Shown: piece after piece, positions 511-37,155 of the stretch
Layout: the number at the start of each line of letters is the position of its first letter
Numbering within the stretch: the stretch's first letter is position 1
NCBI RefSeq assembly: GCF_044704955.1
Contig: NC_091986.1
Coordinates: 166,408,001 to 166,472,000 of the forward strand
DNA: 64,000 nt
Direction: 5' to 3'
Source: Pristiophorus japonicus
Lineage: Eukaryota
The notes under the pieces: generated by a model
What the model was told of the DNA's origin: nothing
The model's input: only the letters and a program-made list of their open reading frames with translations
The model's database searches: none
Made by a program: the position numbers and the translations under genes

Positions 511-1607
511 GTGCCCAATGTACGAAGTGACAGACAGATGAAGAGGAACAGACATTACACCCCCCGCAAGTACAAGGAGAAGCATTCTTACTTCGACTTG
601 CCTGACATCACCTGCCTTCGGAGACTGCGCTTCCACAAAGAAGTAATCACTGAGGGCAGATCTGCAGCCTGCCAGCACCATCAGAACTGTCGAGGTCAAA
701 GTCACCACAGCACTGTCGTTCTACGGTTCGGGTTCTTTTCAGGCAATAGCTGACGACATTTGCGGACTTTCTCAGCATGCCACACATCGCTGCATTAGAC
801 AAGTCACTGAAGCCCTGTACGCACGCAGGAGGGACTTGATCAACTTCCTTATAACCAGGGAGGCAGAGTGAGAGAGCTCTAGGATTCTCCAGAATTGCAA
901 ACTTCCCCAAGGTGCAGGGAGCAATAGACTGTGCGCACATCGCGCTGCGAGCACCTTTTCAGGATGCTGAGGTTTTCAGGAACCGCAAGGGATTCCACTC
1001 CCTGAATGTCCAACTGGTTGTCGACCACCAGCAAATTATACTGGCAGTGAATGCTCAATTTCCGGGCAGCATCCATGATGCTTACATCCTGCGTGAGAGC
1101 ACTGTATCTGACTTGTTTAACAATGAGCCACAAGGTCAATGCTGGAGGCTTGGGGACAAAGGATATGGCCTTGCCACCTGGGTGATGATCCCACTGCGTG
1201 ACACCCACACCGAGGCCGAGAGGCGATACAACGAGAGCCACAGAGCAACTCGCAATATCGTGGAGAAAACCATCGGAGTGTTGAAGCAGTGCTTTAGATG
1301 CCTGGACCACTCAGGAGGCAAGCTCCAATACCACTCTAAGCAGGTAGCTCAATTCATGGTGGTGTGCTCCATGCTACACAACTTGGCTATCAAGAGGGGA
1401 CAAGAATTGCCTGATGAGTCTGACAGTCCACCTCACCAGAGAGAGGAAGAGGAGGACAAGGAAGCGGACGCTGACATCGGGCCAGACAATCAGGCTGACA
1501 CTGAAGCCATGCCCCCGTCTCCCTGTAGACCGCATGAAAGGGCCCAGGGTGGCATGATAGCTGCAAGAGCCTTGCGTCAGGAGCTCATCAATGATCGTTT
1601 TGCCTGA
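511..1607 (+). pseudogene. Harbinger DDE transposase (HARBI1-like), frameshifted
   Basis: RRLRFHKE N-terminal motif (511-753); ORF 912-1607 has AIDCAH, PGSIHDAYIL, LGDKGY, VEKTIGVLKQCFRCL; frames are broken between the two parts. Confidence 0.88.
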
Positions 1608-1810
1608 AAGAACGTTGGTGTTATTTACAAGGCTGACACACTGCTGGGTGTGCAGGTCATACATCAATGGTGGGCATCATCTTGGTGACAGTCATTATAC
1701 GCTTTGATGTTAAGGAATCACCAGCATGTAATGGTGCAGCTATCTGAGCTAATGTGCTATAAGGTTTTGTTAAATAAAAAACATTTAAACCGAACATTAG
1801 TCTGAAATCA

Positions 1811-2419
1811 TCAGTATTTGTGTACAAACCAACCCTTCCACCCCCCCGCCACCCCGCTTCTCCTCCCACCTCTACCCCTTCCCCTTCTCCTCCTGACTGC
1901 AAGCTGCCTGGCCAAGGAGGTCCTCAGGCGATGCTTCATTGGGCGGCGGGGGGGGGGGGGAGGGGGCGCTGACGGCCGAAGCGCTGCTTGGACGGATACG
2001 GGAGAGGATGGTCCCAAGGTGGGAACGTGTTCCAAGCCATAAGCAAGATGTTGCTGCTGGCTCTCATGTGTGGTTGGCAATGGGAGTGCATCATCTTGAA
2101 GTGCAGTGCGGCGCTCTGGGACCACTGGGAGCCCTCTGTCACCAGTGTTCCTGGCTACCAGCTCCAGGGCCTCCTCCATCCCTTCCATGTTATTTCTTAT
2201 TTGTTGGACAAAAACTCGGTGCCAACTATGTTCCTGGTGCTTGGAGGCTTTTTGCTGCTGGTGAATCTCCGTCGTTCCTCCCACAACAGCCAAACAAGCA
2301 CACACCACAGCCACACACGCTTTCAGTCCCTCTGCGCTCCCTTTCTCTCTGTTTCCTCTTCTGCGCATGTCATGATGACCCTTGAGCTCCTGAATTGCTG
2401 TTGCTAAGAACAGCCACAC
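1811..2419 (-). pseudogene. Remnant of Harbinger second gene (C-terminal part; no Myb domain visible)
   Basis: Convergent with the nuclease; Pro-rich and RRRRGRGRGGRR tail like the ORF2 tail at 21536-21840. Confidence 0.5.
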
Positions 2420-2814
2420 TTTACGGCAAAAGGTCAGAAAAGTTTAATGCTACCGCCCATTTGCTATCACTCGCGATAACACCCATTTTCAAAAATGTAA
2501 ACTAGGTGTTTTGAGAATGGGCGAGAAGCCGGCGATCTAAAACCCCTTTTTTCCCACGCCAGAAATAATGCCCATTTTTGGGCGATAAGCACATAAGTGG
2601 AGGTTCTAGCCCATAAGGAGGTAAATGTTTTCCCCACAAACAAAATGTTGTTTCCATTTGTTTCAGGTGTGCTGAAATTATATAGAAATTGTTTAAGTGT
2701 CTGGTATGTAATCAGCATTTTAAGTAGTTTATATTGCAGTTTATACCAAGCTCATGGTTATTTCGATGAATAGGATTATGTCTACTGCGAAGCCTTTCAC
2801 TTATATCAAACAGC

Positions 2815-3130
2815 AACAATAGTGGAAAGGAAGGACCTATTTCCCTTAGCAGAGGGGACAGTAACCAGGAGGCATAGATTGAAAGTTATTGGTAGGAGGT
2901 TTAGAGGGGATTTGAGGAGAAATGTTTTCACCCAGAGGGTGGTGGGAGTCTGGAACTCACTGCCTAAAAGGGTGGTAGAGGCAGAAACCCTCATAGCATT
3001 TAGAAAGTGCTTGGATATGCACTTGAAGTGCTATAACCGACAAGGCTACAGATGAAGAGCTGGAAAGTGGGATTAGGCTGGAAAGCTCTTTGTCGGCCAG
3101 CACAGAAATGCCTGCTCTGTGCAGTAAATT
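2815..3130 (+). mobile_element. CR1 LINE 3' fragment
   Basis: TRRHRLK...RRNVFTQRVVGVWNSLP C-terminal ORF2 motif plus 3' UTR. Confidence 0.85.
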
Positions 3131-6077
3131 TCAAAGATTCTAGGATGAAAAGTCAGGGCGTTTGTGGTTTCAATATGTAGGCAAAAATTAAAAAACAACG
3201 AATGCCATATTACCTCCTCAAAGAGTCTTAAAAATTTGAGAAGTGTGATTTTATTAATTGGTTTATCCTTTATTTGTTTTAACATTATTATTTATAGATA
3301 TTGTAGCAATTAGTCTAAGCCCAGTTTATATTTTATTACACCTAGAATAATTGCTACTTTCACCAAAGCAAGTGTTTGTGCAAATCATGTGAGGAAAACT
3401 CATAACAATGTTGAAAAGGTTCTGAAAACATTCTGTGATGTTCTTTTACAGAATTTAACCCACATATATGGCCCATTCATGTGAAAATACTCGTACCCAA
3501 CTGTCATATTTGTACAGTAATGGTCAAAATAAAAAATGAGCTTAGCTGTATAATTGGCTTTGGGAAGACACTCCTACTGTCAATATTTGCAAAGGGGTTA
3601 AATCTTACCCCCTTTATTTTGACACAAGCTTCATTAAAGGGTCACTGCTTGAAAATACATTGCAGTTTATCAACTTGTCTGTCACCAAGCGACCATCAGG
3701 AGCCTACCCTGTGGTGACCTACACCCGACTATGTTTAATCACAAAAAAGTAGTCTCAAAGAAGGCTGAGAAAAACACAGAAATGTGGGAGCCACATAAAA
3801 TAAACTGCAATATTAGTTCCCCTTTTTAAATAACTTCCATGGGTATATTAACCCTTCACTACTCAGTAAATGTTTTTAGCGTACACTCAAATAATACAAT
3901 AGTCCTCTCAAAATGAAAATGGTAGGGAATATTAGTGCAGCAACATAAAAACCATGTGTCCACACGATTTGAGGGGGTGGCTGATTGTGATGGTGGACAG
4001 CTAGCTCTGGAATTATATTTAATATTACTTAATATTCAATATTATTTCATTGTAAATAAGTTCAGAGTGGTAGCAAATGTTACAATTGAACACATATATA
4101 TTCTTCTAGTGGATTATTCTTTGGAACAAAATCCATCTTGAATCAAATCATAATGCAAAACAATTCTCTTTATATCTATCTTGTCTAAAATACATTGTGC
4201 ATAGTAAACCGATACCATAAAAAACAATTGCACAATCAGTAATTTCCCTACCCAGATTCCTAGAAACATTGGATAAATGCTTATTACTGATTTATCTGTC
4301 TGATTTTTAACAGACATGCATTATTTAGCAGTGAATCATTTCTAACACATTCACTTAAGTCTACTATGTGTCACTGTAAGTAAAAGTTGTCTTTCAAATC
4401 TACAGAACAGTCTCTATCTTATCAAAATCTGTAATTTACTTTTGTGACCCACATTGATTATGACTAGAAATATGTGCAAAAAAAATGTAAATATCTTATG
4501 AGCAGTACTGACATTATTTGGTACATTTTACTTATTTATTTATACCCTGATATTACATTAATAAGTAAAAACAACCGATTAAGTTACAGAAATGCACTTT
4601 TGTCAAAAATTCACATGGCAAATTTTGCAATTGTATGGCATGTGAGATACTGATGTTTTGTCAATCAATGGATTTTAAATTAAAGTAGTTTTAATAGAAG
4701 ACAAATTTAATTCACTTTAACAAATCATGGTATGTACAGAGCCCCTGACCTTTAAGATCTAAATAGCCATCGGCTTGTAATAAAGTTATCAATCATGCAG
4801 CAATGGTTTTGCACAGTGGTCCTTCTGCATACATTTCAAGCCTCATTAGCCATTTTCTCATGCATTGTCTCCTATATTGTTAAATATAAATCCTTCTGTA
4901 ATCATAAAGGTGAAAAGCCATCAGAGTTCAATTGCTGAAGAAATAAATGGTGGCTACATTGAATCTTAAAATTACATAAATCAGAAGGCACACAGGTGTG
5001 TATTCATTATAGGCTGTGCTACCGAAATATGTTTAAAAAAAGTATTTAGATACATTAGTGTAGCTAGCTCTCTGAGAACCCCTGTAGCTTTAGCTCAAAG
5101 CTGTGCAATGGAGTAAAATAAATCCTTCTAAACTCCAGAGGAGGTATAAAGGAAAGTCCTGAGGTCTGAGACCAGAACAATCACTAGTGAAAAGCAATGA
5201 CATACATTGACATACTAGAAAGGCCCTTTCACCATACTGTGCAGTTTTTGGATGCAGTGACCTCTAATTTAGGATAAATGGAGATCAGTTCCAACAAAAT
5301 GTTGCAGTCCTATTTTCAGCAAAGCAAAAAATAGGACACACAAATTATTAAAGGCTTTCACTCACACCACACTTTAATACAGTATCTAGCATGCAGTAAA
5401 ATGCTGAAAGGAAGATAAACTAAACTCTGGGTACATATTAAGAATGTCAATTTTAAATGAGCTTATTTGTTGTTTAATCAGCATGGAACCAGTTGTTTTA
5501 CTTAATCTGTTTGCCTGGGTCCACTTGGTTACTACAATGGAACTGAGAAAGAGTGAAATTGCATTTAATTGTTGTTGTGACTGTGCTGATCAGTCACTCA
5601 TTAATTTACCAAGATTTCATTCTTGGGCTACTAAACAATACTCCTGCTGAGTGTGTGCTTCGAAATGGGGACTGTGGCTCCACATTTCCTGATTCCAAAG
5701 TAAAGTTTCTTCTTTCCTTTTGCTAAAGATCATTATGGCATTATACATTTTAAACTGAATGGTGGACATGCCACTGTACCAAAGGTGATTCGGAAATTAC
5801 AAACTTACAGCTTTTATTTGAATATTGTCCAGGTCTCCTTTAATCCAGTAATACAACTTAAAAGCTGATAAAGCAAACTTAGCAAAGCCGAACTTTCAAA
5901 TTACCACAGGCAAACCATAGTTTTAGCACGTTGGCAATTTCTATATGAACAATCCCAAGAAGCGATTTAAAATATATGCTTCTGTTGTAGAGGACAATGC
6001 CCCATCGAAAAATGTTAGATATACAAAAAAAATCTAGTTTTCTCTTTCATGTTCTGCACTATTTGCCCTTTCTTAGT

Positions 6078-8846
6078 TACATAAGAACATAAGAAATAGG
6101 AGCAGGAGTAGGCCATTTGGCCCCTCAAGCTTGCTCCGTCATTTAATAAGATCATGGCTGATCTGATCATGGACTCAGCTCCACTTCCCTGCCTGCTCCC
6201 CATAACCCTTTATTGCTCAAAGATTTGTCTATCTCTGCCTTAAATATATTCAGTGACCGAGCCTCCACAGCACTCTGGGGCAGAGAATTCTATAGATTTG
6301 CAACCCTCCGAGAGAAGAAATTCCTCCTCATCTCAGTGTTAAATGGACGGACCCTTATTCTGAGACTATGACCCCTAGTTTTAGTTTCCACTATGAGTGG
6401 AAATATCCTCTCTGCATCCACCTTGTCGAGCCCCCTCATTATCTTATATGTTTCGATAAGATCACCTCTCATTCTTCGGAATTCCAATGAGTATAGGCCC
6501 AACCTACTCAATCTATCTTCATAAGTCAACCCCCTCATCTCTGGAATCAACCTAGTGAACCTTCTCTGAACAGCCTCCAATGCAAGTATATCCTTCCTTA
6601 AATACGGAGACCAAAACTATACGCAATACTCCAAGTGTGTCCTCACCAATACCCTGTACAGTTGTAGCAGGACTTCCCTGCTTTTATACTCTATCCCCCT
6701 TGCAATAAAGCCTAACACTCCATTTGCCTTCCTGTTTACTTGCTGTACCTGCATACTAACTTTTTGTGTTTCATGCACAAGGTCCCCCAGGTCCCTCTGT
6801 AGCATTTTGCTATTTTTTTCCATTTAAATTATAATTTGCTTTTCTATTTTTTTCTGCCAAAGTGGATAACCTCACATTTTCCCACATTATACTCCATCTG
6901 CCAAATGTTCGCCCACTCACTTAACCTGTCTATATCCCTTTGCAGATTTTTTCTGTCCTCCTCACAATTTGCTTTCCCACCCATCTTTGTATCATCAGCA
7001 AATTTGGCTACATTATACTCAGTCCCTTCATCCAAGTCATTAATATAGATTGTAAATAGTTGAGTCCCCTGCACCGATCCCTGCGGCATCCCACTAGTTA
7101 CTATTTGCCAACCGAAAAATGACCCATTTATCCCGACTCTCTGTTTTCTGGTAGTTAGCCAATCCTCTATCCATGCTAATATATTACCCTCAACCCTGTG
7201 AGCTTTTATCTTGTGCACTAACCTTTTATGTGGCACCTTATCGAATGCCTTCTGGAAATCCAAATACACCACATCCACTGGTTCCCCCTTATCCACCCTG
7301 CTCGTTACATCCTCAAAGAACTCCAGCACATTTGTCAAACATGATTTCCCTTTCATAAAACCATGCTGACTCTGCTTGATTGAATTATGCTTTTCCAAAT
7401 GTCCTGCTACTGCTTCCTTAATAATGGACTCCAGCATTTTCCCAACGACAGATGTTAGGCTAACTGTTGTATAGTATCCTGTTTTTTGTCTGCCTCCTTT
7501 TTTAAATAGGGACATTACATTTGCGGTTTTCCAATCCGGTGGGACTGCCCCAGAATCCAGGGAATTTTGGTAGATTACAACCAATGCATCTACTATCTCT
7601 GCAGCCACTTCTTTTAAGAACCTAGGATGTAAGCCATCAGGTCCAGGGGACTTGTCCACCTTTAGTCCCATTATTTTACCGAGTACTACTTCTTTAGTGA
7701 TAATGATTGTATTAAGTTCCTCCCTCCCTATAGCCCCTTCATTATCCACTATAGGGATGTTTTTAGTGTCTTCTACTATGAAGACCGATACAAAATATTT
7801 GTTCAACGTCTCTGCCGTTTCCCTGTTCTCCATTATTAATTCCCCAGTCTCATCCTCTAGGGGACCAACATTTACTTTAGCCACTCTTTTCCTTTTTATG
7901 TACCTGTAGATACTCCTACTATCTGTTTTTATATTTTGTGCTAGTTTACTTTCTTAATCTATCTTTCCACTCTTTATCATTTTTGTAGTCGTTCTTTGCT
8001 GGCTTTTAAAAGTTTCACAATCCTCTGGCCTCCCACTAGTCTTGGCCACATTGTATGCCCTTGTTTTCAATTTGATACCATCCCTTGTTTCCTTAGTTAG
8101 CCACGGATGGTTATCCCTTCTCTCATTGGGATATATTTTTGTTGCGAGTTATGAAGTACCTCCTTAAATGTCTGCCACTGCTCATCAACCGTCCCATACT
8201 TTAATCTATTTTCCCAGTCCACTTTAGCCAACTTTGCCTTCATACCTTTGTAGTCTCCTTTATTTAAGCTTAGGACACTGGTTTGAGATCCAATTTTCTC
8301 ACTCTCCAACTGAATTTGAAATTCAACCATGTTATAGTCATTCATTCCTCGAGGATCCTTTACTAGGAGATCATTTATTAATCCTGTCTCATTACACAAT
8401 GCCAGATCTAAGATAGCCTGCTCCCTGGTTGGTTGCACCATGTATTGTTCAAGGAAACTATCCTGGCTATACTCTATGAACTCTTCCTCAAGGCTACCCT
8501 GGCCAATTTGCTTTGTCCAATCAATATGAAGGTTAAAATTGCCCATGATTATTGCCGTTCCTTTTTTACAAGCCTCCTTTATTTCTTGATTTATACTCCG
8601 TCCAATAGTGTAGCTACTGTTAGGGGACCTATAGACTACACCCACCAGCGACTTTTCCCCTTATTATTCCTTATCTCCACCCAAACTGATTCAACATCTT
8701 GATCTTCTGAGCCAATATCGTTTCTCACTAATGCACTGATCTCATCCTTTATTAACAGTGCTATCCCACCTCCTTTTTCCTTTCTGTCTGTCCTTCCGAA
8801 TTGTCAAATACCCCTGAATATTTAGTTCCCAGTCCTGGTCACCTTG
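6078..8846 (-). mobile_element. CR1 LINE, 5'-truncated (APE+RT remnants)
   Basis: ORFs 8097-8645 (VYRSPN, endonuclease), 6844-7884 (YLDFQKAFDKVPH, KFADDTK), 6290-6580; (TTCTTATG)-type 3' tail near 6080. Confidence 0.93.
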
Positions 8847-14606: not shown

Positions 14607-17267
14607 CAAGAGTGAAACTGTAATAATTACAATATATACTGCAACTATAAGTCTGGTCATTGTACATTCAATTTATTTTTCATTACTTGAGTAAACAAGA
14701 TGTAGTAAAACTGGGTTTTCTTTATCTATCTATAAATAAAATAGAAAAACTAAAAATTTTCAAAATCTGAAATAAAATTAGAAAATGTTGCCCATCTTTC
14801 ATTTTGTTTAGTCATTAATAATGCGTTTGCTTTTCTTCCAGTTTCTAGTTCAAGAGTTAATACCCAAAATGTTAACCTATCTTTTCTCTTTTTCTATGTG
14901 ACTGGGTCACTTTAGTTCAGTGACAAATAAAGTACAGTAATTTAGGACAATTAAGTATGGGAGAGGGGGAAACAAACTGTTGACACAAAGTCTTTGTTCT
15001 GTAAGATGTGACTAGGAATTGCCCAGTTCCACCTAGTCTGGAAAAAGTGCAGTGGTAAGTAACAAAAATTGTTATGGGGGTAAATTACAGGTGAAATTAA
15101 TGTGCCTGAAGACAAAAGCCTTTTGAAAGACAGAATCTTCCTGGAAGAAAGTCAGATTGGTGAGATCCAAATATTGTCACCAAGTGTTCTATGGCTGGCA
15201 CATCTCAACTCGTTCTCATTGAGGAAGCTTGAGAAGTACCATGTTTCATGTGCTTGAAATACTGAAAGGCATGGATAATGTGGATGTAATGTAGAAGCAT
15301 GAAGCTAAAACAGGCTATCTTCAGCAAAACTCAAGATTAGATGGCATTTTACCCACAGAATATACTTATGTTGATTAATTAGTCTAGATAGGAATTGGAA
15401 GGATGCCTGATTATGAAATGATTGAACTCTTCATCATATACTACATGCTGAAGAAGCTGCGATCAGGTTAGGAATCTTGTACAAATTTTCTGCATCAACT
15501 CCCCGCACCCCACCCACGATTTAACCTTACTCGTCAGCTACTCTTAAGGTCACAACTGAGATCACAGTTAATTGCAACTGACTGTACTATCTTCTATGAC
15601 TCCAAGTGGATAATGCCCTGGATTATGGTAGTGGCTGCCCTATTGGCTTGTAAGTAGTGCCAGGTGGGATAAGCAACTAGATATGAATGGCCACGCATGT
15701 TATGGACAATAAGTGAAAGAAAACAAATGCACTCTCAGGGGCCGAAATTGGTCGACATATAGTTGTCCAAAAGGGTGATTTTGGTCAGAAAACAGCTACA
15801 TACCGCTCGGCGGAATATTCATCAATGACATACCGCCAAGTGGTATGCACACCGTCCGCCATGCAGGACCGCCCGCAGACCGTCCAAAAAGTGTGAGTTT
15901 CATCACATACTGCCGACATACCACCAGAGCTGCATAATGTCCGGGAAAAGGTGGTTTTACGCGATGGTAAGTGGCCAGGGATCGGCGGAGTGCACGGAGC
16001 CCCCATTTTGGAAATCGGGACCTGTCAGCTAAAGCAGCAGCTCTGTATCTCTGAGGTGAAAAGTGATTTTAGAGTGCAAAAGTATATTTACTATTACTGA
16101 GTAAATTATTAAGATAGAAAGGCATTTTATTAATATTTTTTGGATCTCAGCCTGTATTGATGACAACCTGTCTAATGAACCAGATGTGAGGAAGTTTATT
16201 AAGCAGAGGTATAAGGCTCATGGAAAAGTTAGCAGAATGATGAGAAGGTTGTGATGTATGTAGCACTCAAATCACTGATGCCACAGTCTGGTGTTGTAGT
16301 AACTGCTGTGACCTTAGTCCTTTATTGTGTAACTCCAGAGTGCCTCTCAGGTGTGGTGGGCAGCCTTTTATACTCTGTCTTGCAGGTACTTTCAGGTCTC
16401 CCACCACAGCGCCCTCTATGGCGCACCATTGTAACCCTACATTTAATGTACCTGGACAATACATAACATCTCACTCCCCCCCCCCAGTTCCAAAAGCCAT
16501 TGCCGTTAACTTCGGCCTTGTGCGTCCTGGTTGATTTGTGAGTGTGAGTCCATGGCCATCCACTTCCCTCTTCTACCCCATGTAGAGATTATGCTTGTGA
16601 TCCGGTGCAAGCATGTGGTATTAGCAGTCCTTACATGAGTGATGAAGTACAGAAACCAGGTATACATAGACAGTACATTTGTATGGTACATATAGATGCA
16701 TTGAAGAATTATAACAAAAGGTTGCAGGTACACTGAACAGTTATTTAATCCCAGCTTCACTGGGTGAGGTACGGTGGTGGCATACAGCCCCTTTTTGCCC
16801 GAGGTAATGGGCTGCGCTGAGACAGGGTATCACAACTAGTGCGTTGCCTCTGTTCTCAGAAAGTAGTTGCCTTTGTGGCTCATCTGCAGCCGCTGAACTT
16901 GCATGAATCACATAAAATCGGAAATCACATTAATCCATTAGTCATGTTAGTCACAGATCCATTAACCCTTTTACTTGTACCTCATGGTATTAACTCTTTC
17001 CATAAATCATATCCATCATTTTAAACACAGTAATCATTTCAGCATCAAAATCTTAACTCTTGTCATAAATCACGTCATCATACAAATCACATTACTCATT
17101 TAGACTCGCTCTTGCCTTACAAAAGTCTCTTTGTGGAGACCACCAACGGTGTAAGGTCCTTTTAAGACTCCCGGGTACATTTCCCTTTTAAGACGCCATC
17201 TTGTTTTTCCCACGAGGCTTCCACTGGGCGTCGCCATTTTAGGTGTTCTGTTTGTCTTTCTCTGCAG

Positions 17268-17694
17268 AACTATGCTGCCACGAGGCTTGCCAGCATCTTG
17301 AGCTCGCTGTGCCCCTTTACATTGAAACAACTCTGCCAACAGTTGCAGCCGATTACAGAAAAGGAGGTTCCAAGCCAAAAGAAACGTAACGTACCTGAAG
17401 AAGTGGTACAGAAAAGGCATAGGTTAAATGCTCATTTTGTTGAGGAGGAGCTTCCTGCAATTACTGAACCAATTGAGGATGTGAGTGGCTTGACTGCACT
17501 GCTGAACGAGTTTGAGAAGAAAAATGTGAATCCCGTTTCTGCTCTACATCTATTTTGCAAGCGCAGAGGATGTCGTCTGCATTTCCAAGAGGTTTCTGGC
17601 ATGACATGTTACTCTCTTCGTGCAGTTGTGGATGGGGTTAAAGAAGGAATAGGTGTCAGCAAAAAAAACGGCTAAGAACAATTGTGCTGAAGCC
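17268..17694 (+). pseudogene. Antisense cargo exon with ADAD1-like dsRNA-binding domain (1-nt insertion in A8 run, C-terminal helix truncated)
   Basis: NPVSALHLFCKRRG...AVVDG...GIGVSKK/TAKNNCAEA; polypyrimidine-CAG acceptor ending 17267 is in phase 0 with the open frame. Confidence 0.75.
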
Positions 17695-17890
17695 GAAACC
17701 ACGAGACGCTTGGGTGTCATTGATCACTCGTACCTCGGAGATCTGCCGGTACCTGGAGAGAACTTCTTCCAGGGCGTCCTTGATCACTCACACCTCAGAG
17801 ATCTGCCCGTAATTGGAGAGCACTTCTTCCAGGGCCTGCTCGTCTGTGTCGAGATTTAGACCTCCGATGAACAGCTTTCCTTCTCCGGAC
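17689..17890 (-). pseudogene. CIRBP/RBM3-like RRM fragment with a 60-bp internal duplication
   Basis: [35 protein letters not shown] / ALEEVLSRYRQISEVRVINDTQASRGFGF: RNP2 LFIGGL and partial RNP1 RGFGF. Confidence 0.85.
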
Positions 17891-18177
17891 CCTTTTGCGA
17901 GGTTGGTTTGCTGGGTGTTTTCCCTGCTGAACTCTAGCCTGTTGCTGCCTACCAGTTCACTCTCGACTCTCTCTTGGGATCCACCACACTTCGACCGCAC
18001 CCAGGAGCCACAACACACCGGCCCCCACACCGCCACATCCTCCGGAGCCGGCCTCTGCCCGCGGGCCGACGGTGCCTGCTGGAGCAGCCCGTCGAAGCCC
18101 TTCTCTCTCCTCCAGCTCGGTCGGCACTGCTCTTTGGGAACCCGGGGGACAGCGGTCTGTGGAGGAATGAAGTCTTC

Positions 18178-19409
18178 CTAGCTCCCATGGACCTTCCCCA
18201 TCCACCTCCTGCCAAGTAGCGTCGGCCCATCACCTGCAATGATCCACAAAGGTAAACCGTGTGTCTCACCCCGTGAGATACCTGCACATCCGCTCTGCCA
18301 AGAACAGGTATCCGTTCCTTGGTGTAGGTGCGCAGCTTTGCCGTGTCCGGGACCAGCTTGGGTCGTGCAGCTGGGTTGATCCACAGTTTATCAAAAGTTT
18401 CCTGACTCATCAGCGACTGACCCGATCCAGTGTCCACTTCCATACTCACTGGGCCACCATTAATCTTGACTTCCAAAACCACTGGGGTCGAATCGTTGGT
18501 ACAAGTATACAGTCCAAACGCCTCATCTTCTTCTACCTGCTCCTCGCTGGATGGTGGATCATCTACCATCTCCTCAGCCACATGGTGAGTTAGGTTTCTT
18601 TTGCACATACGCTGAAGGTGGCCTTTCGTGTGGCAGGTATTGCACATATACTCTGTAAACCTGCACCAGTGAGCCCCATGGCTTCCTCCGCAGCACCAGC
18701 ATGGTGCTACTCGATTAGCCCCCCTCGGCGGACTCTGAGTTCCAGGACCCCGAGTTCCGTGCTCTCTGCCCTGGGCAGAGCCACATTCTGCAGTTTTGTC
18801 CGTGACGGGCACTATCCTGTGGACAGTGCCTGCCGGGTTCGAGACTGTGTGGGTCATCTGCTTGGTGCTGCAAATCAAGGTCATAAATACCCTGCTGATG
18901 TTGATGGCTTGCTGCAGACTGACTGCAGGTTCAGTGGCTAGCAGCTTGTGAAGGAGACCCTCATGGCCAATCCCCATAATAAAAACGTCTCGCAACGCCT
19001 CGTCAAGGTGCGTGCCAAAATCACATGGCACCGCGAGTCTCCTGATGTCTGCAGCATATTTGGTGACATCCTGGTCCTCAGGTCTGCAGTGGTGGTAGAA
19101 TTTGTGCCTGGCCGTGAGGATGCTCTCCTTCGGTTTCAGTTGGTCACGAATGAGTTCAATCAGCTCCTCATATGACTTGTCCTTGGTGCTCGCAGGTGCC
19201 AGCAAATCCCTGACGAGACAGTAAACCTCATCACCACAACTGGACAGCAATATCGCCTTACGCTTCTCTCTCAGTGCGTCCGTGTCCCCCGTCAGGTCAT
19301 TTGCTATAAAGTAGTACTCGAGCCTTTCCGTAAAGGCCTCCCAATCATTATCCACTGTAAAATCCTTTAGCGAGCCCAGAGTAGCCATGGTTGCATGAAG
19401 CTCGCCCAT
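18178..19409 (-). pseudogene. Gypsy gag + aspartic protease (one frameshift near 18270)
   Basis: DWEAFTERLEYYF, two CCHC knuckles (CWCCGGSHGAHWC, CNTCHTKGHLQRMC), VDTGS, and LLGRRW in the shifted frame. Confidence 0.92.
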
Positions 19410-19649
19410 GTCCTCGTCGCCAATGTAATGTATGTAGCACTAAGATCACTGACTCCACACAGTCTGGTGTTGTAGTAACTGCTGTGACCTTAGTCCTTTA
19501 TTGTGTAACTCCAGAGTGCCTCTCAGGTGTGGTGGGCAGCCTTTTATACTCTGTCTTGCAGGTACTTTCAGGTCTCCCACCACAACGCCCTCTGTGGCGC
19601 ACCATTGTAACCATACATTTAATGTACCTGGACAATACATAACAAAGGT

Positions 19650-20610
19650 CTTACCGCAAAGGATCTTGAGGGAGAAGTGTTCATACTTGGACCTGATCGA
19701 TCGACAGTGTGTCCAAAGGCTGCGCTTCCGAAAAGAGATCATCACACAGATTTGCCAGCTCATTAAGGCAGACCTGCAGCCCGATAGCACCAATATTACT
19801 GCACTCTGTTGAGATGAAGGTGACTGGCACTTTCCTTTTATGCATGTGGGTCTTTTCAATCATCAGCTGGGGACATATGCGCTATTTCGCAGTACGCTAC
19901 TCGTCGGTGCATTCGACAGGTAACCGAAGCACTGTATGACGATGGATGGAATTTATAAACTTCCCAATGACGAGGGAGGCTCAGAGTGACAGGGCTTTGG
20001 GATTTGCACGCATTGCTGGCTTCCCTAAGGTGCAGGGTGCTATTGACTGTACCCATATTGCCCTGCAAGCACCATTACAGGAGGCGAGCACCATTACAGG
20101 AGGCGGAGGTGTACCGAAATCGTAAGGGATTTCACTCCCTCAACATGCAGCTGGTATGCGACCATACACAGCGCATAATGGCAGTGAATGTCAACTTTCC
20201 AGGGAGCATCCATGATGCGCATATCTTACAGGAGAGTACTGTGTCTGACCTGTTGAAGTCTGCGCCACAAGGTAAATTCTGGATGCTGGCCGACAAAGGG
20301 TATAGCCTCGCTACCTGGCTTTTGCCCCCCCTAAGGAACCCTCACACAGAACCCGAGCAACGATACAATAAAAGCTATATAGCCACACATAACATAATTG
20401 AAGACAATTGGAGTGCTGAAGCAGTGCTTTCGGTGCTTGGACCACTTGGGAGGCAGGCTGCAATACTACCCTGAGCAGTTGCTAAGTTCACAATGATATG
20501 CTGCATGTTGCATAATTTAGCAATCATGTGGGGACAGGAATTGCCACAGGGAACTGAAGGACCATCTGAGGAGAGTGCAGGAGATGGAGGAGGAAGAAGA
20601 CAATGAGGGG
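19650..20610 (+). pseudogene. Harbinger DDE transposase, frameshifted; 5' part lies before 16250
   Basis: QRLRFRKEII, YRNRKGFHSLNMQLVCD, PGSIHDAHIL, LADKGY. Confidence 0.88.
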
Positions 20611-21842: not shown

Positions 21843-24800
21843 TGTTGTGTATCTGTAAAGCATGCACTCCCATGTTCCGCCACCAGGGAGCTCATCCCCT
21901 GAAGTCCCAAGAGATCCCAGCATCTTCTGGCTCCGGTGAAACCCACAGATAAGTCGTATGAGGAGCTGTGTACACTGGTTCGGGAGCATCTTAATCCGAG
22001 GGAGAGCGTGCTGATGGCGATGTATCGGTTCTACACGTGCCAGCAATCTGAAGATCAGGAAATGGCGAGCTACGTCGCCGAGCTAAGGCGACTTGCAGGA
22101 CAATGTGAGTTTGATGGCTACCTGGAGCAGATGCTCAGAGACTTTTTTGTACTGGGCATTGGCCACGAGACCATCCTACGAAAACTTTTGACTGTGGAGA
22201 CACCGACCCTCAGTAAGGCCATTGCGATAACACAGGTGAATATGTCCACCAGTGATAACATCAAACAAATCTCTCAGCATTACAAGTGCTAGCAATGTTC
22301 ATAAATTAACTGGAATTGTGTTTGTGAGCCGAAATGTACAGGGCAGAAACCACGAGTCTGCAACTGCCAGCAGGCCTCAGGTGACCCAGATGACTGAGTC
22401 CGCAACAAAGGATGAATGCAAGGCAGTTCACACCTTGTTGGCGTTGTGGAGGCTTCCATTCAGCCGATTCATGCTGCTTCAAAGGGTATGTTTGCAAGAG
22501 CTGTGAAACAATGGGGCACCTCCAACGAGCTTGCAAACGAGCTGCAAGATCTGCAAAACCTGCTAACCACCACGTGGCAGAGGAAGATCGGTCCATGGTG
22601 GATCAAAGCAATTTCGAGCCTCAGAGAGGAGGCAGATGCTGAAGTACATGGGGTGCACACTTTTTCGACGAAATGTCCACCTATAATGCTAAATGTAAAA
22701 TTGAATGGCTTATCTGTACCCATGGAACTGGACACTGGCGCTAGCCAATCCATCACGAGTAAAAAGATGTTTGAGAGACTGTGGTGCAACAAGGCATTCA
22801 GACCAGCCCTGAGCCCCATCCACACGAAACTGAGAACGTACACCAAAGAGCTTATCACGGTCCTGGGCAGCGCCATGGTCAAGGTCACCTACACGTGCAC
22901 GTGCACGAACTGCCACTCTGGATTGTCCTGGGAGATGGCCCCACACTGCTTGGAAGGAGCTGGCTGGGCAAAATCCACTGGAACTGGGATGACATCCGAG
23001 CTCTATCACATGTCGATGAGGCCTCATGTACCCAGGTTCTTCACAAATTTCCTTCCGTTTTTGAGCCAGGCATTGGAAACTTTTCCGGGGCGAAGGTGCG
23101 GATCCAATTGGTCCCAGAGGCATGACCCATTCACCTCAAAGCGCGAGCGGTACCTCACATGATAAGGGAGAGAGTGGAAATCGAGCTGGACAGGCTGCAA
23201 CGCGAGGGCATCATCTCCCCAGTGGAATTCAGCCAGTGGGCCAGCCCGATTGTTCCAGTACTCAAAAGTGATGGCACGGTCAGGATTTGCGGCGATTATA
23301 AAGTAGCTATTAATCGTTTATCGCTACAGGACCAATACCTGCTACCTAAGGCAGACGACCTATTTGCGACGCTTGCAGGAGGCAAGACATTCACCAAGCT
23401 CGACCTGACTTCGGCCTACATGACGCAGGAGCTGGAGGAGTCTTCGAAGGGCCTCATCTGCATCAACACGCACAAGGGACTGTTCATCTACAACAGATGC
23501 CCATTTGGAATTCGGTCGGTTGCAGCGCTCTTCCAGAGAAACATGGAGAACCTACTCAAGTCGATACCACACACAGTGGTCTTTCTGGACGACATATTGG
23601 TCACGGGTCGGGCCCTACACGTGTAATTGCGCAAAGGTGAGAACTGGGTATGGGGAAAAAAAACAAGTAATTGCTTTTGAGAAAGCTAGAAATATTTTAT
23701 GCTCCAACAAGTTGCTTGTATTGAATAAGCCGTGTAAAAGACATGTGCTAGCATGTGACGCGTCGCCGTACGGAGTCGGGTGTGTATTACAAGCTAACAT
23801 TGCGGGGAAGTTGCAACCTGTCGCCTATGCTTCCAGGAGCTTGTCTAAGGCCGAGAGGGCCTACAGCATGATTGAGAAAGAGGCATTAGCGTGTGTGTTC
23901 GGTGTAAATAAAATGCATCAGTGCCTGTTTGGCCTCAAATTTGAGCTGGAAACCGATCACAAGCCCCTCACATCCCTGTTCGCTGAAAACAAGGGGATAA
24001 ATACTAATGCCTCAGCCCGCATACAAAGGTGGGCACTCGCGCTATCAGCTTTTAGCTATAATCATCCTCCACAGGCACCGAGAACTGTGCGGATGCTCTC
24101 AGTCGGCCACCATTGCCCACCACGGGGGTGGAAATGGCGCAGCCTGCAAACTTGTTGATGGTGGCACAGCCCGCAGACTTGTTGATGATCATGGAAGCGT
24201 TTGAAAATGATAAATCACCTGTCACGGCCCATCAGATTAGGACTTTGACCAGCCAAAATCCTCTGCTGTCCCTAATAAAAAAACTGTTCACTGCATGGGA
24301 ACTGGGCCAGCATCCCTGTTGAAATGCAAGAGCTAATCAAGCCATTCCAGCGGTGAAAGGACGAGCTGTCCATTCAGTCAGACTGCCTGTTGTGGGGTAA
24401 TCACGTAGTGCTACCAAAAAAGGGCAGGGAGACGTTCATCTCGGATCTCCACAGCACACACCCGGGTATAGTAATGATGAAAGCGATAGCCAGATCCCAC
24501 GTGTGGTGGCCCGGTATCGACTCTGACTTAGAGTCCTGTGTACGGCAATGCAGCATATGTGCTCAGTTGAGCAACGCGCCCAGAGAGGCACCACTAAGTT
24601 TGTGGTCCTGGCCCTCCAGACCATGGTCGAGGATCCATGTCGACTATGCGGGCCTGTTTCTCGGTAAAATGTTCCTGGTGGTGGTGGATGCTTTTTCAAA
24701 ATGGATTGAACGTGAAATAATGTCGGGAAGCACCGCCACCGCCACCATTGAAAGCCTGGGGGCCATGTTTGCCACCCACGGCCTGCCTGACATACTGATC

Positions 24801-25816
24801 AGTGACAACGGGCCATGTTTCACCAGTGCCGAATTTAAAGAATTCATGACCTGCAATGGGATCAAACATGTCACCTCGGCCCCGTTTAAACCAGCCTCCA
24901 ATGGGCAGGCAGAGCGGGCAGTACAAACCATCAAACAGAGCCTTAAACGAGTCACAGAAGGCTCACTCCAAACCCGCCTATCCCGAGTACTGCTCAGCTA
25001 CCGCACAATACCCCACTCGCTCACAGGGGTGCCCCCGGCTGAGCTACTCATGAAAAGGACACTTAAAACCAGACTCTCGCTGGTTCACCCCAACCTGTAT
25101 GATCAGGTAGAGAGCAGGCGGCAGCAACAAAATGTAAATGATGGTCGCGCCACTGTGTCACGGGAAATTGATCTGAATGATCCTGTGTATGTGCTAAACT
25201 ATGGACATGGTCCCAAGTGGATCGCGGGCACGGTGATAGCTAAAGAAGGGAATAAGGTGTTTGTAGTCAAACTAGACAATGGAAAAATTTGCAGAAAGCG
25301 CCTGAACCAAACGAGGCTGCGGTTTAGACTGCCCTGAACAACCCACAGCAGACACCACCTTTTTCGAGCCCACACCACACACCCAAAGAATCAACGACAC
25401 CACGTCGGACCAGGAAATCAAACCCATCCCGCCCAACAGCCCAGCAAGGCCAGGCTCACCTAGCAGCCCTGCAGGGCCAACAACATGCCAGTCCAGTGAG
25501 GGCACAGCCAACAGACCAGAACCGACATTTGTACCGAGGCGGTCCACTAGGGAAAGAAAGGCTCTCAAATGCCTCACCTTGTAAATAGTTTTCACTTTGA
25601 CTTTGCAAGGGGAGTGCTGTTGTGTATCATTCCCATGTTCCGCCACCAGGGAGCTCATCCCCTGAAGTCCCAAGGGATCCCAGCATCCCTTGGGAGCACT
25701 GTATATAAGTCGGCCCCTAAGGCCTGTTCCTCACTCTGGAGTGTCTTATTAAAGACTGCGGTCACTGTTACTTTAACCTCCCTGTGTGCAGCCTCATCTG
25801 TGTTAGGAACACAATA
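21843..25816 (+). mobile_element. Gypsy LTR retrotransposon (gag-PR-RT-RH-IN), degenerate
   Basis: TSD CCGTC; 5' LTR truncated near 21924 and joined to mid-gag; 3' LTR 25618-25816 after a PPT; LDTGA, RICGDYK, FLDD, CDAS/IEKEALA/TDHKPL, integrase HHCC + HVDYAG/SDNG/NGQAERAV. Confidence 0.93.
24390..25337 (+). CDS. Gypsy integrase domain (open 315-aa stretch of broken pol)
   Basis: HPGIVMMKAIARSHVWWPG, IHVDYAG, ISDNGPCF, SNGQAERAV. Confidence 0.88.
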   Translation: MWGNHVVLPKKGRETFISDLHSTHPGIVMMKAIARSHVWWPGIDSDLESCVRQCSICAQLSNAPREAPLSLWSWPSRPWSRIHVDYAGLFLGKMFLVVVDAFSKWIEREIMSGSTATATIESLGAMFATHGLPDILISDNGPCFTSAEFKEFMTCNGIKHVTSAPFKPASNGQAERAVQTIKQSLKRVTEGSLQTRLSRVLLSYRTIPHSLTGVPPAELLMKRTLKTRLSLVHPNLYDQVESRRQQQNVNDGRATVSREIDLNDPVYVLNYGHGPKWIAGTVIAKEGNKVFVVKLDNGKICRKRLNQTRLRFRLP

Positions 25817-32314: not shown

Positions 32315-34315
32315 TGTTGTGTATGCATGCCTGTTTACTGTGTGATGTCTGTAACACTGTTATGCAACACTGAATGTACCCTTACACTGTACACACCTTG
32401 CCTGTACACCACAGGGTGCTGCTGCTGGAGACCTAAGGGTTACCTGCACACTGCAGGTAACCCAGTATAAAAAGGAATACACAGCTTGTTGTCCTCACTC
32501 AGGAGCTGCAAATAAAGGACTACAGGTCCACACAGTTTAAGTATCATACCTTGCCTCGTGGAGTCATTACTAAAGGTGCCTACATACGCTACAATTGGCG
32601 ACGGGAATACGAGGTCATGAACTACACGCTCAACATGTCTAACCTCAGCAACTTTCAACAATTTACAGAGGGGAAAGATTGGGATGCTTTTGTGGAAAGA
32701 TTGGAACACTTTTTTTATAGCCAACGACCTGGACAGGGACACACCGGCTACACTACCGAACAAACGCAGGGCCATCCTGCTTAGCAGTTGTGGGCCCACC
32801 ATCTACGGTCTCATCAGGGACTTACTAGCCCCGGAGAAGACAACCATCAAGAGCTATGAGCAACTTGTAACAATCATACAGGAACAACTGAAATCGAAAG
32901 AAAGCGTCCTCACAGCCAGGCACCGGTTCTACACTTACCGGCGACCTGAGGGCCAAGAAATTGCCAAGTATGCTGCACACTTAAGAAGACTAGCTGCACC
33001 GTGTGATTTTGGCGACCACCTTAATGAAGCACTAAGGGACATATTTGTCATCGGAATCGGCCACGAAGGCCTCCTACACAAATTGCTCTCGGCTGACATC
33101 ATGGTCACCCTACAGAAAGCAAATCAAGTGAGCCAGGCCTACATGGTTTCGGCCAGCAACTCCAGGCGAATACTGACCCAGGACTCTAAACCGGCGAGCG
33201 CAGTGCACCGCATGGATACGTCTAAAGGCAGAAATGCTGCCCTGAGTCCCGCAACCCTGAGTCCGCCACAAGGGGCAAACCGGATGGCCCCGTGCTGGCA
33301 CTGTGGAGAAAACCACAGGGCCCACCAGTGCCGCTACAAAGACTATACATACAAAGGCTGCGAAGAGAAAGGGCACCTTCACAGAATGTGCAGAGAAAGC
33401 TTTACTCACCGCTGATCACCGGGGCTCTGACACAGATGAAGGTGAAGTTGCTCAACCCCTGGAAGAAGAGTATGGAACTCATATCTGCTCCACCAAAAGT
33501 TCTCCATGGGCGATGAAAGCAGACGTCGACGGGGTCCCAGTTTCTATGGAGAGCGACACAGGGGCGAGCCAATCTGTGATGAGCCAAGCGACCTTTGAAG
33601 AACTTTGGATGAATCCTGCCAATCGACCACAACGGCAGCCTGTCCAAGCGAAGCTGCTCCCAGGCCTCCGGGCTCCAGCAATCAACCTCGAACATGGATC
33701 CACCACAGCATCCGGAGGTTCCACAGTCCAGCTCGACTGGCCACAGCATCCTGGCGAAATCCCTAAGACCGAGGATCCAAACTCCACTTTCCGGGCCGGG
33801 GCAGCACTCCAAGAGGTGAACATCGATGAACGAAATGGATTCCCAACATCCAGGATCGAACCACAGCCTACCTGCAGCAAGACCAGAAAATGGCTGCAGC
33901 ACCACAAGCAGCAGAACTTGTAATCAAAATGGCCGCCACCATGCCAACAGTAAGCATGGAGGAGCATCACATGACACCGAGCGGCCAATCGGATTTGAAG
34001 GCTCCCTTAAAGGAGACCGGTAACCAAAGAAATTTAAAGGAGAAGTTTCAACTATTTGAGTACACGGACTTTAAAGCTAAAGATGCGATTAAAGGGTGCA
34101 AGTATGAAAATGTATGCAATGTAACAATGAATTGTGATGCTGGTTTAACTAATGTGACTAATGATATGAATGCAGGTGTCAGTAAGGTTAAGAACAAGTT
34201 TATTATGCTTAACAGTAATGATAGAGATTGTGAAATGCCTAATGTAACCATGTCAGTTGAAACCAGGACACCTAGTAGTGATGCAAATGCTAGAATGTAT
34301 AATGCAGGCTTGACT

Positions 34316-37155
34316 ATAGAAACATAGACATAGAAAATAGGTGCAGGAGCAGGCCATTCAGCCCTTCTAGCCTGCACCGCCATTCAATGAGTTCATGGCT
34401 GAACATGAAACTTCAGTACCCCCTTCCTGCTTTCTCGCCATAACCCTTGATCCCCCTAGTAGTAAGGACTATATCTAACTCCTTTTTGAATATATTTAGT
34501 GAATTGGCCTCAACAACTTTCTGTGGTCGAGAATTCCACAGGTTCACCACTCTCTGGGTGAAGAAGTTTCTCCTCATCTCGGTCCTAAATGGCTTACCCC
34601 TTATCCTCAGACTGTGACCCCTGGTTCTGGACTTCCCCAACATTGGGAACATTCTTCCTGCATCTAACCTGTCTAAACCCGTCAGAATTTTAAACGTTTC
34701 CATGAGGTCCCCTCTCATTCTTCTGAACTCCAGTGAATACAAGCCCAGTTGATCCAGTCTTTCTTGATAGGTCAGTCCCGCCATCCCGGGAATCAGTCTG
34801 GTGAATCTTCGCTGCACTCCCTCAATAGCAAGAATGTCCTTCCTCAAGTTAGGAGACCAAAACTGTACACAATACTCCAGGTGTGGCCTCACCAAGGCCC
34901 TGTACAACTGTAGCAACACCTCCCTGCCCCTGTACTCAAATCCCCTCGCTATGAAGGCCAACATGCCATTTGCTTTCTTAACCGCCTGCTGTACCTGCAT
35001 GCTAACCTTCAATGACTGATGTACCATGACACCCAGGTCTCGTTGCACCTTCCCTTTTCCTAATCTGTCACCATTCAGATAATAGTCTGTCTCTCTGTTT
35101 TTACCACCAAAGTGGATAACCTCACATTTATCCACATTATATTTCATCTGCCATGCATTTGCCCACTCACCTAACCTATCCAAGTCACTCTGCAGCCTAA
35201 TAGCATCCTCCTCGCAGCTCATACTGCCACCCAACTTAGTGTCATCCGCAAATTTGGAGATACTGCATTTAATCCCCTCGTCTAAATCATTAATGTACAA
35301 TGTAAACAGCTGGGGCCCCAGCACAGAACCTTGCGGCACCCCACTAGTCACTGCCTGCCATTCTGAAAAGTACCCGTTTACTCCTACTCTTTGCTTCCTG
35401 TCTGACAACCAGTTCTCAATCCACGTCAGCACACTACCCCCAATCCCATGTGCTTTAACTTTGCACATTAATCTCTTGTGTGGGACCTTGTCGAAAGCCT
35501 TCTGAAAGTCCAAATATACCACATCAACTGGTTCTCCTTTGTCCACTTTACTGGAAACATCCTCAAAAAATTCCAGAAGATTTGTCAAGCATGATTTCCC
35601 TTTCACAAATCCATGCTGACTTGGACCTATCATGTCACCATTTTCCAGATGCACTGCTATGACATCCTTAATAATTGATTCCATCATTTTACCCACTACT
35701 GAGGTCAGGCTGACCGGTCTGTAATTCCCTGTTTTCTCTCTCCATCCTTTTTTAAAAAGTGGGGTTACATTGGCTACCCTCCACTCCATAGGAACTGATC
35801 CAGAGTCAATGGAATGTTGGAAAATGACTGTCAATGCATCCGCTATTTCCAAGGCCACCTCCTTAAGTACTCTGGGATGCAGTCCATCAGGCCCTGGGGA
35901 TTTATCGGCCTTCAATCCCATCAATTTCCCCAACACAATTTCCCGACTAATAAAGATTTCCCTCAGTTCCCCCTCCTTACTAGACCCTCTGACCCCTTTT
36001 ATATCCGGAAGGTTGTTTGTATCCTCTTTAGTGAATACCGAACCAAAGTACTTGTTCAATTGGTCTGCCATTTCTTTATTCCCCGTTATGACTTCCCCTG
36101 ATTCTGACTGCAGGGGACCTACGTTTGTCTTTACTAACCTTTTTCTCTTTACATACCTATAGAAACTTTTGCAATCCGCCTTAATGTTCCCTGCAAGCTT
36201 CTTCTCGTACTCCATTTTCCCTGCCCTAATCAAACCCTTTGTCCTCCTCTGTTGAGTTCTAAATTTCTCCCAGTCCCCAGGTTCACTGCTATTTCTGGCC
36301 AATTTGTATGCCACTTCCTTGGCTTTAATACTATCCCTGATTTCCCTAGATAGCCACAGTTGAGCCACCTTCCCTTTTTTATTTTTACGCCAGACAGGAA
36401 TGTACAATTGTTGTAATTCATCCATGCGGTCTCTAAATGTCTGCCATTGCCCATCCACAGTCAACCCCCTAAGTATCATTCGCCAATCTATCCTAGCCAA
36501 TTCACGCCTCATACCTTCAAAGTTACCCTTCTTTAAGTTCTGGACCATGGTCTCTGAATTTACTGTTTCATTCTCCATCCTAATGCAGAATTCCACCATA
36601 TTATGGTCACTCTTCCCCAAGGGGCCTCGCACAATGAGATTGCTAATTAATCCTCTCTCATTACACAACACTCAGTCTAAGATGGCCTCCCCCCTAGTTG
36701 GTTCCTCAACATATTGGTCTAGAAAACCATCCCTTCTGCACTCCAGGAAATCCTCCTCCACCGTATTGCTTCCAGTTTGGCTAGCCCAATCTATGTGCAT
36801 ATTAAAGTCACCCATTATAACTGCTACACCTTTATTGCATGCACCCCTAATTTCCTATTTGATGCCCTCCCCAACATCCCTATTACTGTTTGGAGGTCTG
36901 TACACAACTCCTACTAACGTTTTTTGCCCTTTGGTGTTCTGCAGCTCTACCCATATAGATTCCACATTATCCAAGCTAATGTCTTTCCTAACTATTGCAT
37001 TAATCTCCTCTTTAACCAGCAATGCTACCCCACCTCCTTTTCCTTTTATTCTATCCTTCCTGAATGTTGAATACCCCTGAATGTTGAGTTCCCAGCCCTG
37101 ATCATCCTGGAGCCACGTCTCCGTAATCCCAATCACATCATATTTGTTAACATCT
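34316..37155 (-). mobile_element. Young CR1 LINE, near-complete ORF2
   Basis: One frame from 37136 to 34413 with only two stops (36855-36857, 36672-36674); APE (ITETW, YRPPN, GDFN, SDH) and RT (FADDTK); (TTCTATGT)-type tail. Confidence 0.96.
34413..36671 (-). CDS. CR1 ORF2 reverse transcriptase (752-aa open part)
   Basis: NYRPVSLTS, QHGF, YLDFQKAFDKVPH, GVPQGSVLGP, KFADDTKL. Confidence 0.9.
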   Translation of the reverse strand: MLCNERGLISNLIVRGPLGKSDHNMVEFCIRMENETVNSETMVQNLKKGNFEGMRRELARIDWRMILRGLTVDGQWQTFRDRMDELQQLYIPVWRKNKKGKVAQLWLSREIRDSIKAKEVAYKLARNSSEPGDWEKFRTQQRRTKGLIRAGKMEYEKKLAGNIKADCKSFYRYVKRKRLVKTNVGPLQSESGEVITGNKEMADQLNKYFGSVFTKEDTNNLPDIKGVRGSSKEGELREIFISREIVLGKLMGLKADKSPGPDGLHPRVLKEVALEIADALTVIFQHSIDSGSVPMEWRVANVTPLFKKGWREKTGNYRPVSLTSVVGKMMESIIKDVIAVHLENGDMIGPSQHGFVKGKSCLTNLLEFFEDVSSKVDKGEPVDVVYLDFQKAFDKVPHKRLMCKVKAHGIGGSVLTWIENWLSDRKQRVGVNGYFSEWQAVTSGVPQGSVLGPQLFTLYINDLDEGIKCSISKFADDTKLGGSMSCEEDAIRLQSDLDRLGEWANAWQMKYNVDKCEVIHFGGKNRETDYYLNGDRLGKGKVQRDLGVMVHQSLKVSMQVQQAVKKANGMLAFIARGFEYRGREVLLQLYRALVRPHLEYCVQFWSPNLRKDILAIEGVQRRFTRLIPGMAGLTYQERLDQLGLYSLEFRRMRGDLMETFKILTGLDRLDAGRMFPMLGKSRTRGHSLRIRGKPFRTEMRRNFFTQRVVNLWNSRPQKVVEANSLNIFKKELDIVLTTRGIKGYGEKAGRGY

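Follow-up and report, generated by a model that had tools for sequence, protein, structure and literature searches.

We find that a minus-strand LTR retrotransposon in the window (the whole 64-kb stretch of DNA that was analysed) carries, between its protease gene and its non-coding 3' region, fragments of two host genes: a CIRBP-like RNA recognition motif (RRM) in sense and a piece of an ADAD-type gene in antisense. This cargo is restricted to a minority of the copies of the family, and a sister form exists that has RRM-derived sequence without the ADAD-type piece. The arrangement is probably best explained by LTR-mediated retroposition, in which the reverse transcriptase (RT) switched templates and the resulting chimera was subsequently amplified and decayed, with the RRM as a passenger. 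The coordinates of the features are collected in Table 1.

Table 1. Features of the cargo-bearing element and of its immediate surroundings (positions in the window)
Feature	Position	Strand	Evidence or remark
LTR element, 3,395 bp	16250-19644	-	LTRs, target duplication, PBS, PPT
Left target-site duplication copy, 5 bp	16245-16249		AAGGT
Right target-site duplication copy, 5 bp	19645-19649
3' LTR, 219 bp	16250-16468	-	TG...CA ends; 95.9% identity to 19424-19644 (7 substitutions, 2 gaps)
Polypurine tract (PPT)	16469-16485	-	G-rich run immediately ahead of 3' LTR
Non-coding 3' internal region, common to the high-copy family	16486-17310	-	69-78 X1 contigs at 16522, 16757, 17157
ADAD-type gene piece, dsRBD region, 375 bp, rotated order	17317-17691	+	antisense to element; two deletions and a frameshift
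CIRBP-like RRM fragment, limited to RNP2-RNP1	17683-17892	-	host start codon position altered
60-bp tandem duplication within RRM fragment	17712-17835	-	TRF, 2.1 copies, 85% matches; 55 of 64 letters alike
Stop codon in first duplicate of RRM fragment	17788-17790	-	translation
Probable 5' UTR of source CIRBP paralogue	17893-17950	-	X5 contigs
GC-rich (67%) stretch without placement, in a minority of copies	17951-18109	-	contigs, composition; without protein match
Family's own tail behind protease	18110-18177	-	common to P0002 and P0003; many contigs cover
Stop codon private to this element copy	18178-18180	-	91 X1 contigs differ at 18179
Retropepsin protease, DTGS	18181-18473	-	frame break near 18270; 79-82% to P0002
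gag, zinc-knuckle motifs	18474-19388	-	open from ATG 19388
Primer-binding site (PBS), TGGCGACG core	19413-19423	-
5' LTR, 221 bp	19424-19644	-	pairs with 3' LTR
Harbinger-type transposase remnant, right flank, outside element	19650-20474	+	DDE_Tnp_4 E=1.7e-20 at 19971-20471
Harbinger remnant	~730-1607

The element is a non-autonomous, pol-less (gag and protease) Ty3/Gypsy LTR retrotransposon that belongs to a very high-copy family. It has direct LTRs with TG...CA ends, a short target-site duplication (TSD), a PBS, a PPT, and a gag gene followed by an aspartic protease related to Gypsy polyproteins (Pfam gag-asp_proteas, E=4e-05, which is under the curated cut-off). The RT, RNase H and integrase that an autonomous Ty3/Gypsy element bears in this order are missing, and tblastn with nine relatives, mostly RT-bearing, gave no significant match to remnants of any of the three in the region 16470-18270. 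The RT of one relative (P0007) has Ty3 as its best solved structure (E=2e-47), and the proteins nearest to the gag-protease product, which are 75-82% identical to it, bear the UniRef label Pristiophorus japonicus (a shark). Pol-less LTR elements with gag, or gag and protease, are known, for example TR-GAG of plants, which have two LTRs, a PBS and a PPT, lack RT and integrase and reach a high copy number. Our element shares all of these features, with gag and protease as its genes, but differs from the plant TR-GAG in its animal host and in having a subgroup with host-gene cargo. Six of the nine differences between its LTRs lie within the first 34 bases (16250-16283 versus 19424-19459), the remainder being nearly identical; the pair is possibly recombinant, which would blur dating. 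A search of Rfam returned two matches only, both far under the gathering score.

Other repeats of the window include a second gag-protease LTR element on the plus strand (32315-37997), with 131-bp repeats that are 97% alike, a PBS at 32596 and a gag 52% identical to that of the studied element. This second element gave no RT match of its own; a LINE RT (34413-36671, minus strand) lies inside it, and its non-coding region contains repeated AAGATGGCG-type motifs similar to those at 17190-17245. Pol-less gag-protease elements may be a common class in the host genome. A degraded Gypsy element (21865-25687, plus strand) retains remnants of gag, protease, RT, RNase H and integrase, and its protease region, being 47% identical to that of the studied element, marks it as a relative of the helper kind that a pol-less element would need. 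Related LINE fragments occur in both orientations (6098-8660, 34339-36905, 46091-48745, 51057-54061, 55456-57131 and 60704-63996), one of them with a match to Pfam RVT_1. Among the database proteins, P0023, labelled hyaluronan-binding protein 2-like, starts with the zinc-knuckle and protease sequence of the studied family and is probably a chimeric annotation that includes a copy of the element.

Copies of the family were compared by aligning to the studied DNA the contigs from four runs, of which X1 is probably DNA and the kind of X5, X6 and X7 is not on record; stretches without cover in X6 and X7 were excluded. The cargo is carried by a minority of the family copies and the family as a whole is without the RRM. 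In X1, a letter different from that of the studied copy is shown by 69-118 contigs at eight sites listed for the protease and the 3' region, against 2-17 at six X1-supported cargo sites, and the summed X1 depth is 150k-540k over the protease versus 0.4k-7k over 17362-18027, a roughly hundredfold difference that is a coarse sign and not a measure of copy number. At five of the cargo sites 11-17 X1 contigs differ, with a summed depth of 1,100-4,000. In the sister form, which both X1 and X5 contain, 17310 is connected with 17777 by letters derived from the RRM and ending at RNP1, and the RRM fragment has internal deletions. Based on the differences at cargo sites in X1 and on this differently built sister form, the cargo-bearing chimera was copied further as a non-autonomous element.

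The original prediction had recognised the RRM as CIRBP-like and as only the N-terminal part of the domain, and both points hold. The fragment matches Pfam RRM_1 (E=4.6e-11), finds CIRBP and then RBM3 as its best solved structures, and is identical at 28-30 of 36 residues to CIRBP paralogues of sharks and rays. RNP2 (LFIGGL) and RNP1 (RGFGF) are both present, with a 20-residue duplication and a stop between them. Similarity stops at RNP1, and the ~31 host residues that follow RGFGF are missing; we take these, from the general RRM fold, to be the second helix and the last (fourth) strand. Unlike CIRBP and RBM3, the fragment thus lacks a complete RRM fold, and it also lacks the RGG tail; the sister form stops at the same point and the RRM was probably never whole. 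The 60-bp tandem duplication and the TGA in its first copy are likewise present as predicted, and the second duplicate has a sense codon where the first has the TGA; the contig comparison has no entry for the TGA among the best 40 of 270 difference rows. Between the duplicates 9 of 64 sites are different, against 7 of 219 between the LTRs (P=2e-4), and this greater divergence of the duplicates places the disruption of the RRM before the studied insertion, at a time when the element was still mobile. As to the source genes, the shark and ray gene models P0032-P0035, P0051 and P0052, in which two or three nearly identical CIRBP units are fused, point to CIRBP genes clustered in tandem in cartilaginous fishes.

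The linker between the protease and the RRM (17893-18177, 63% GC overall) is a mosaic. The family and the studied copy part at ~18110 (the P0003 alignment ends at 18111 and X6 has a loose end at 18110), and beyond the family tail the protein searches found no matching protein, such blanks being weak evidence. At the other end of the linker, the X5 contigs that follow 17950-17893 are very abundant, run on into the RRM, unbroken on 17777-17948 across both parts, and exit the studied DNA at 17948; the summed X5 depth is 4231 at 17942 versus 153 at 18003, with a loose end behind 17948. These contigs are probably host CIRBP transcripts, X5 being presumably RNA, and 17893-17950 is probably their 5' UTR. 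Comparison of the linker with the upstream extensions of the shark and ray CIRBP models gave a best p of 0.026 in 24 tests, which is not significant. The family sequence just past the capture point (18100-18138) resembles the TDEQAL-coding letters of the RRM (17825-17849), a joint 17849-18100 is found in X5 and X7, and loose ends occur in X5 and X6; the resemblance is either due to chance or marks a stretch that helped two RNAs pair.

The GC-rich stretch in the middle of the linker bears on the alternative that fares best, though we regard it as unlikely, namely that the host pieces were acquired as DNA or through read-through. An element that had inserted ahead of a CIRBP paralogue would have been fused to it by a deletion, or the pieces would have been patched in by break repair, and the product retrotransposed afterward; the GC-rich stretch would then be the promoter or an upstream exon of the CIRBP paralogue. 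Its GC- and CpG-rich, promoter-island-like composition next to the probable 5' UTR agrees with this, as do the extra letters that two further contigs carry between 18072 and 18106 or 18128, and DNA repair is an easier route to antisense cargo. However, the exit of the X5 contigs at 17948 into other letters implies that the host transcript differs upstream from the GC-rich stretch, the probable host transcripts run unbroken over the UTR and the RRM, and the rotated ADAD-type piece is not colinear with host sequence.

According to the original prediction, the RRM lies in the protease reading frame behind one TAG and about 95 open linker codons, the remaining lesions being the TGA and a frame break near 18270, and this was read as an ancestral Gag-PR-RRM fusion. 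The frame is borne out by translation: the C-terminal frame of the protease, LLGRRWMGKVHGS, is followed on the minus strand by TAG 18178-18180, by 98 stop-free codons and then by EGKLFIGGL (E at 17883), beyond which it is interrupted by the TGA (17788-17790) and closes with a stop (17656-17658); the ADAD-type piece now terminates this frame. The gag-protease ORF departs from the protease alignment near 18270, where tblastn with P0002 places residues 2-379 in one frame and 376-427 in another. Both upstream lesions are peculiar to this copy, since nearly all depth in all four runs differs from it at 18179, many contigs are without the break, and the database protein P0002 reads through both sites. 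As the stop and the break are absent from most sister copies, a once-continuous frame is plausible in the founder of the cargo subgroup. The register was not kept in all of its descendants, and the prediction, which had named variation of the RRM frame among copies as the observation that would speak against it, is to this extent partly contradicted: in the three listed contigs reaching across part of the linker, the net change in length is -11, -1 and -12, which in two of them is not a multiple of three. Such long register-breaking contigs are biased toward decayed single copies, and most cargo-bearing copies may keep the register, as there is no majority-supported linker indel among the best 12 of 48 indel rows.

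The open linker is only mildly unusual. Over the whole 288 nt, 11% of 4000 dinucleotide shuffles leave the frame from the protease into the RRM open, and over the 219 nt of non-family sequence 17% do so; one plus-strand frame of the linker DNA is likewise open; with a 1-in-3 prior for the register, the joint chance of an in-register and stop-free linker is ~5%. This low value counts against our preferred explanation and speaks for a Gag-PR-RRM polyprotein kept by selection, whose captured RRM would help to package or chaperone the element RNA, as do the private nature of both upstream lesions and the amplification of the subgroup evident from the 11-17 X1 contigs at cargo sites. We nevertheless hold such a polyprotein to be very improbable, because an RRM that ends at RNP1, in the studied copy as in the sister form, is without its second helix and last strand, the internal duplication is old and the sister form has deletions within the fragment, the linker is a three-part mosaic that includes a probable UTR, gag already bears zinc knuckles, the register is lost in two of the three sister pieces listed, and no protein with both a protease and an RRM occurs among the 30, 17 and 3 matches of the protein searches, blanks of this type again being weak evidence. 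What stands of the predicted fusion is a plausible open frame in the subgroup founder. A family-wide ancestral or a working fusion finds no support, given a family that leaves the linker at ~18110, an RRM cut at RNP1 in the sister form too and a duplication older than the insertion. Under LTR-mediated retroposition the register would be a by-product, that of half an RRM lying behind non-coding DNA that happens to be stop-free.

The original prediction overlooked the antisense ADAD-type piece. P0048, which is ADAD1-like by its source label and has dsrm and A_deamin domains, matches 17317-17691 with 67% over 81 aa (E=7.5e-28). The piece resembles ADAD1 and ADAD2 in its dsRBD sequence but is a fragment without the deaminase domain, on the strand opposite to the element and with a broken frame. 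An abundant X5 contig (contig 13) departs from the piece at 4 letters over 17472-17639 and by a 15-letter gap, and further contigs have a gap of 6 letters and a shift by one letter. An Atlas lead given with high confidence had taken the plus-strand ORF to be poxvirus E3L-like (Z-alpha and dsRBD); the HMMER match is of the ADAD type, and the Z-alpha-like helix is the displaced end of the dsRBD. The piece is bounded by a TGTGC repeat at 17308-17312 and 17683-17687, 375 bp apart, and this 5-nt repeat sits in a 9-nt stretch over which the host and the sister-form junction agree at 8 of 9 letters. The order within the piece is rotated: in both X1 and X5, 17691 connects back to 17317, the X5 host contigs pass 17317-17362 and then enter other sequence, and this host order agrees with P0048, where the helix matching 17317-17362 comes after the dsRBD. 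The abundant X5 host contigs give no cover from 17363 to ~17425, and at the 17362/17363 junction the X5 depth is ~6 versus ~500 on the adjoining parts.

We tentatively propose, as a possibility that we would not bet on, that the ADAD-type piece is one full lap of RT around a circular RNA of a germ-cell gene, copied in antisense. The RT would have left the element at the shared 9-nt stretch, crossed a back-splice junction at 17362/17363 and returned at the same stretch. A single lap with the same stretch for entry and exit would account economically for a piece that is both rotated and bounded by a repeat. The missing cover of 17363 to ~17425 by the abundant X5 contigs speaks against such a lap, and a tandem dsRBD repeat or exon duplication in the host gene, or an extra template switch, may give the same rotated order. 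A tandem dsRBD repeat is made less likely by the single dsRBD of P0048 and by the thin X5 depth at the junction. We assume that the antisense orientation requires a plus-strand switch or an antisense template. Like the circRNA-derived pseudogenes described by Dong et al. 2016 (PMC4897178), the piece has a reversed order of host segments, no poly(A) and LTR sequence on its flanks. In the available text of that study the junctions are verified exon-exon back-splices, whereas the one at 17362/17363 is a putative back-splice; the ADAD-type copy further differs in being about one period long, in starting and ending in the same short repeat and in lying inside an element with both LTRs and a TSD. 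The authors regard the mechanism by which circRNAs are retrotransposed as unknown and caution that reversed junctions can also arise by other routes (PMC4897178).

The available accounts describe the ADAD genes as germ-cell genes (PMC10040813, PMC10437952) and mouse ADAD2 as acting in piRNA biogenesis (PMC10040813). An antisense piece so close to the host transcript (4 other letters in contig 13) could in principle have been kept for its RNA, with antisense RNA from the element, as transcripts or piRNAs, acting on the ADAD-type mRNA and so dampening a germ-line RNA regulator in favour of the element, but we give little credence to this, as only a small share of the copies bears the cargo, the source is labelled ADAD1-like and not ADAD2, mouse ADAD2 represses ping-pong so that the sign of any benefit is ambiguous, and abundant germ-cell RNAs are the expected passive cargo.

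The RT of LTR elements is described as jumping, at a short stretch that both templates share, onto a cellular RNA packaged alongside and then returning to the element (PMC5131818). LTR-mediated retroposition of this kind would account for our element as follows. In one sub-lineage, and probably in germ cells, where ADAD genes are expressed, the RT of a helper element may have switched onto co-packaged host RNAs and back, the only likely protein contribution of the element itself being Gag-protease. The first capture would have placed a 5' fragment of the transcript of a CIRBP paralogue (5' UTR and RRM up to RNP1) in sense just behind the protease, the GC-rich stretch being taken along with it. 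Later, the 375-bp piece of an ADAD-type transcript would have been captured in antisense at the junction between CIRBP fragment and element, via the short shared repeat. The chimera, having retained both LTRs, the PBS and the PPT, could be copied further in trans, and would then have decayed through the 60-bp duplication, deletions and stops. The structure has the marks of an LTR-mediated retrocopy, with partial host fragments between two element halves, both LTRs kept and neither poly(A) nor a TSD of the fragments' own, and microsimilarity at a switch point is seen at the ADAD-type piece, in the 5-nt repeat at its two ends and in the 8 of 9 letters shared with the sister form.

Retrocopies within LTR elements have been described by Tan et al. 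2016 (PMC5131818) as partial, derived from several parents, bounded by microsimilarity and re-amplified, and as including pieces of 5' UTRs. The present case is similar in that host RNA pieces from more than one parent gene, one of them with a 5' UTR piece, lie without poly(A) between the halves of an LTR element, with a short shared repeat at a switch point and later non-autonomous copying. It differs from the cases in the available text in its one antisense, rotated cargo, and the ADAD-type piece seems to have been inserted without replacing element sequence, whereas the fly cases always replaced part of the ORFs (PMC5131818). The species covered there are fly, mosquito, zebrafish, chicken and mammals, while the nearest named relatives of our element are from shark. 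In the mainly open-access literature, on retroelement Gag joined to a captured RRM and on LTR elements of sharks among other topics, we found no earlier account of the present case; the supplements of PMC5131818 and PMC4897178 may hold cases with CIRBP or ADAD.

On this reading the element is a further example of a known process, LTR-mediated retrocopying, and its rotated antisense ADAD-type piece is the part worth following. It would represent a staged gene capture, apparently in a cartilaginous fish, with the succession of events preserved in the sister forms and with a cargo that tells which RNAs were in one particle with the element. A host domain that follows a retroelement ORF in frame can be a passenger, and the case calls for caution on this point. 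Were the rotated ADAD-type piece to prove a back-splice product, how circRNAs are retroposed would become a directly testable question. Should the circular reading hold, the locus would preserve a direct footprint of the origin of a circRNA-derived pseudogene, with both LTRs, the TSD and a sister form free of this cargo, and small RNAs directed against a germ-line RNA regulator could arise from the amplified antisense copies.
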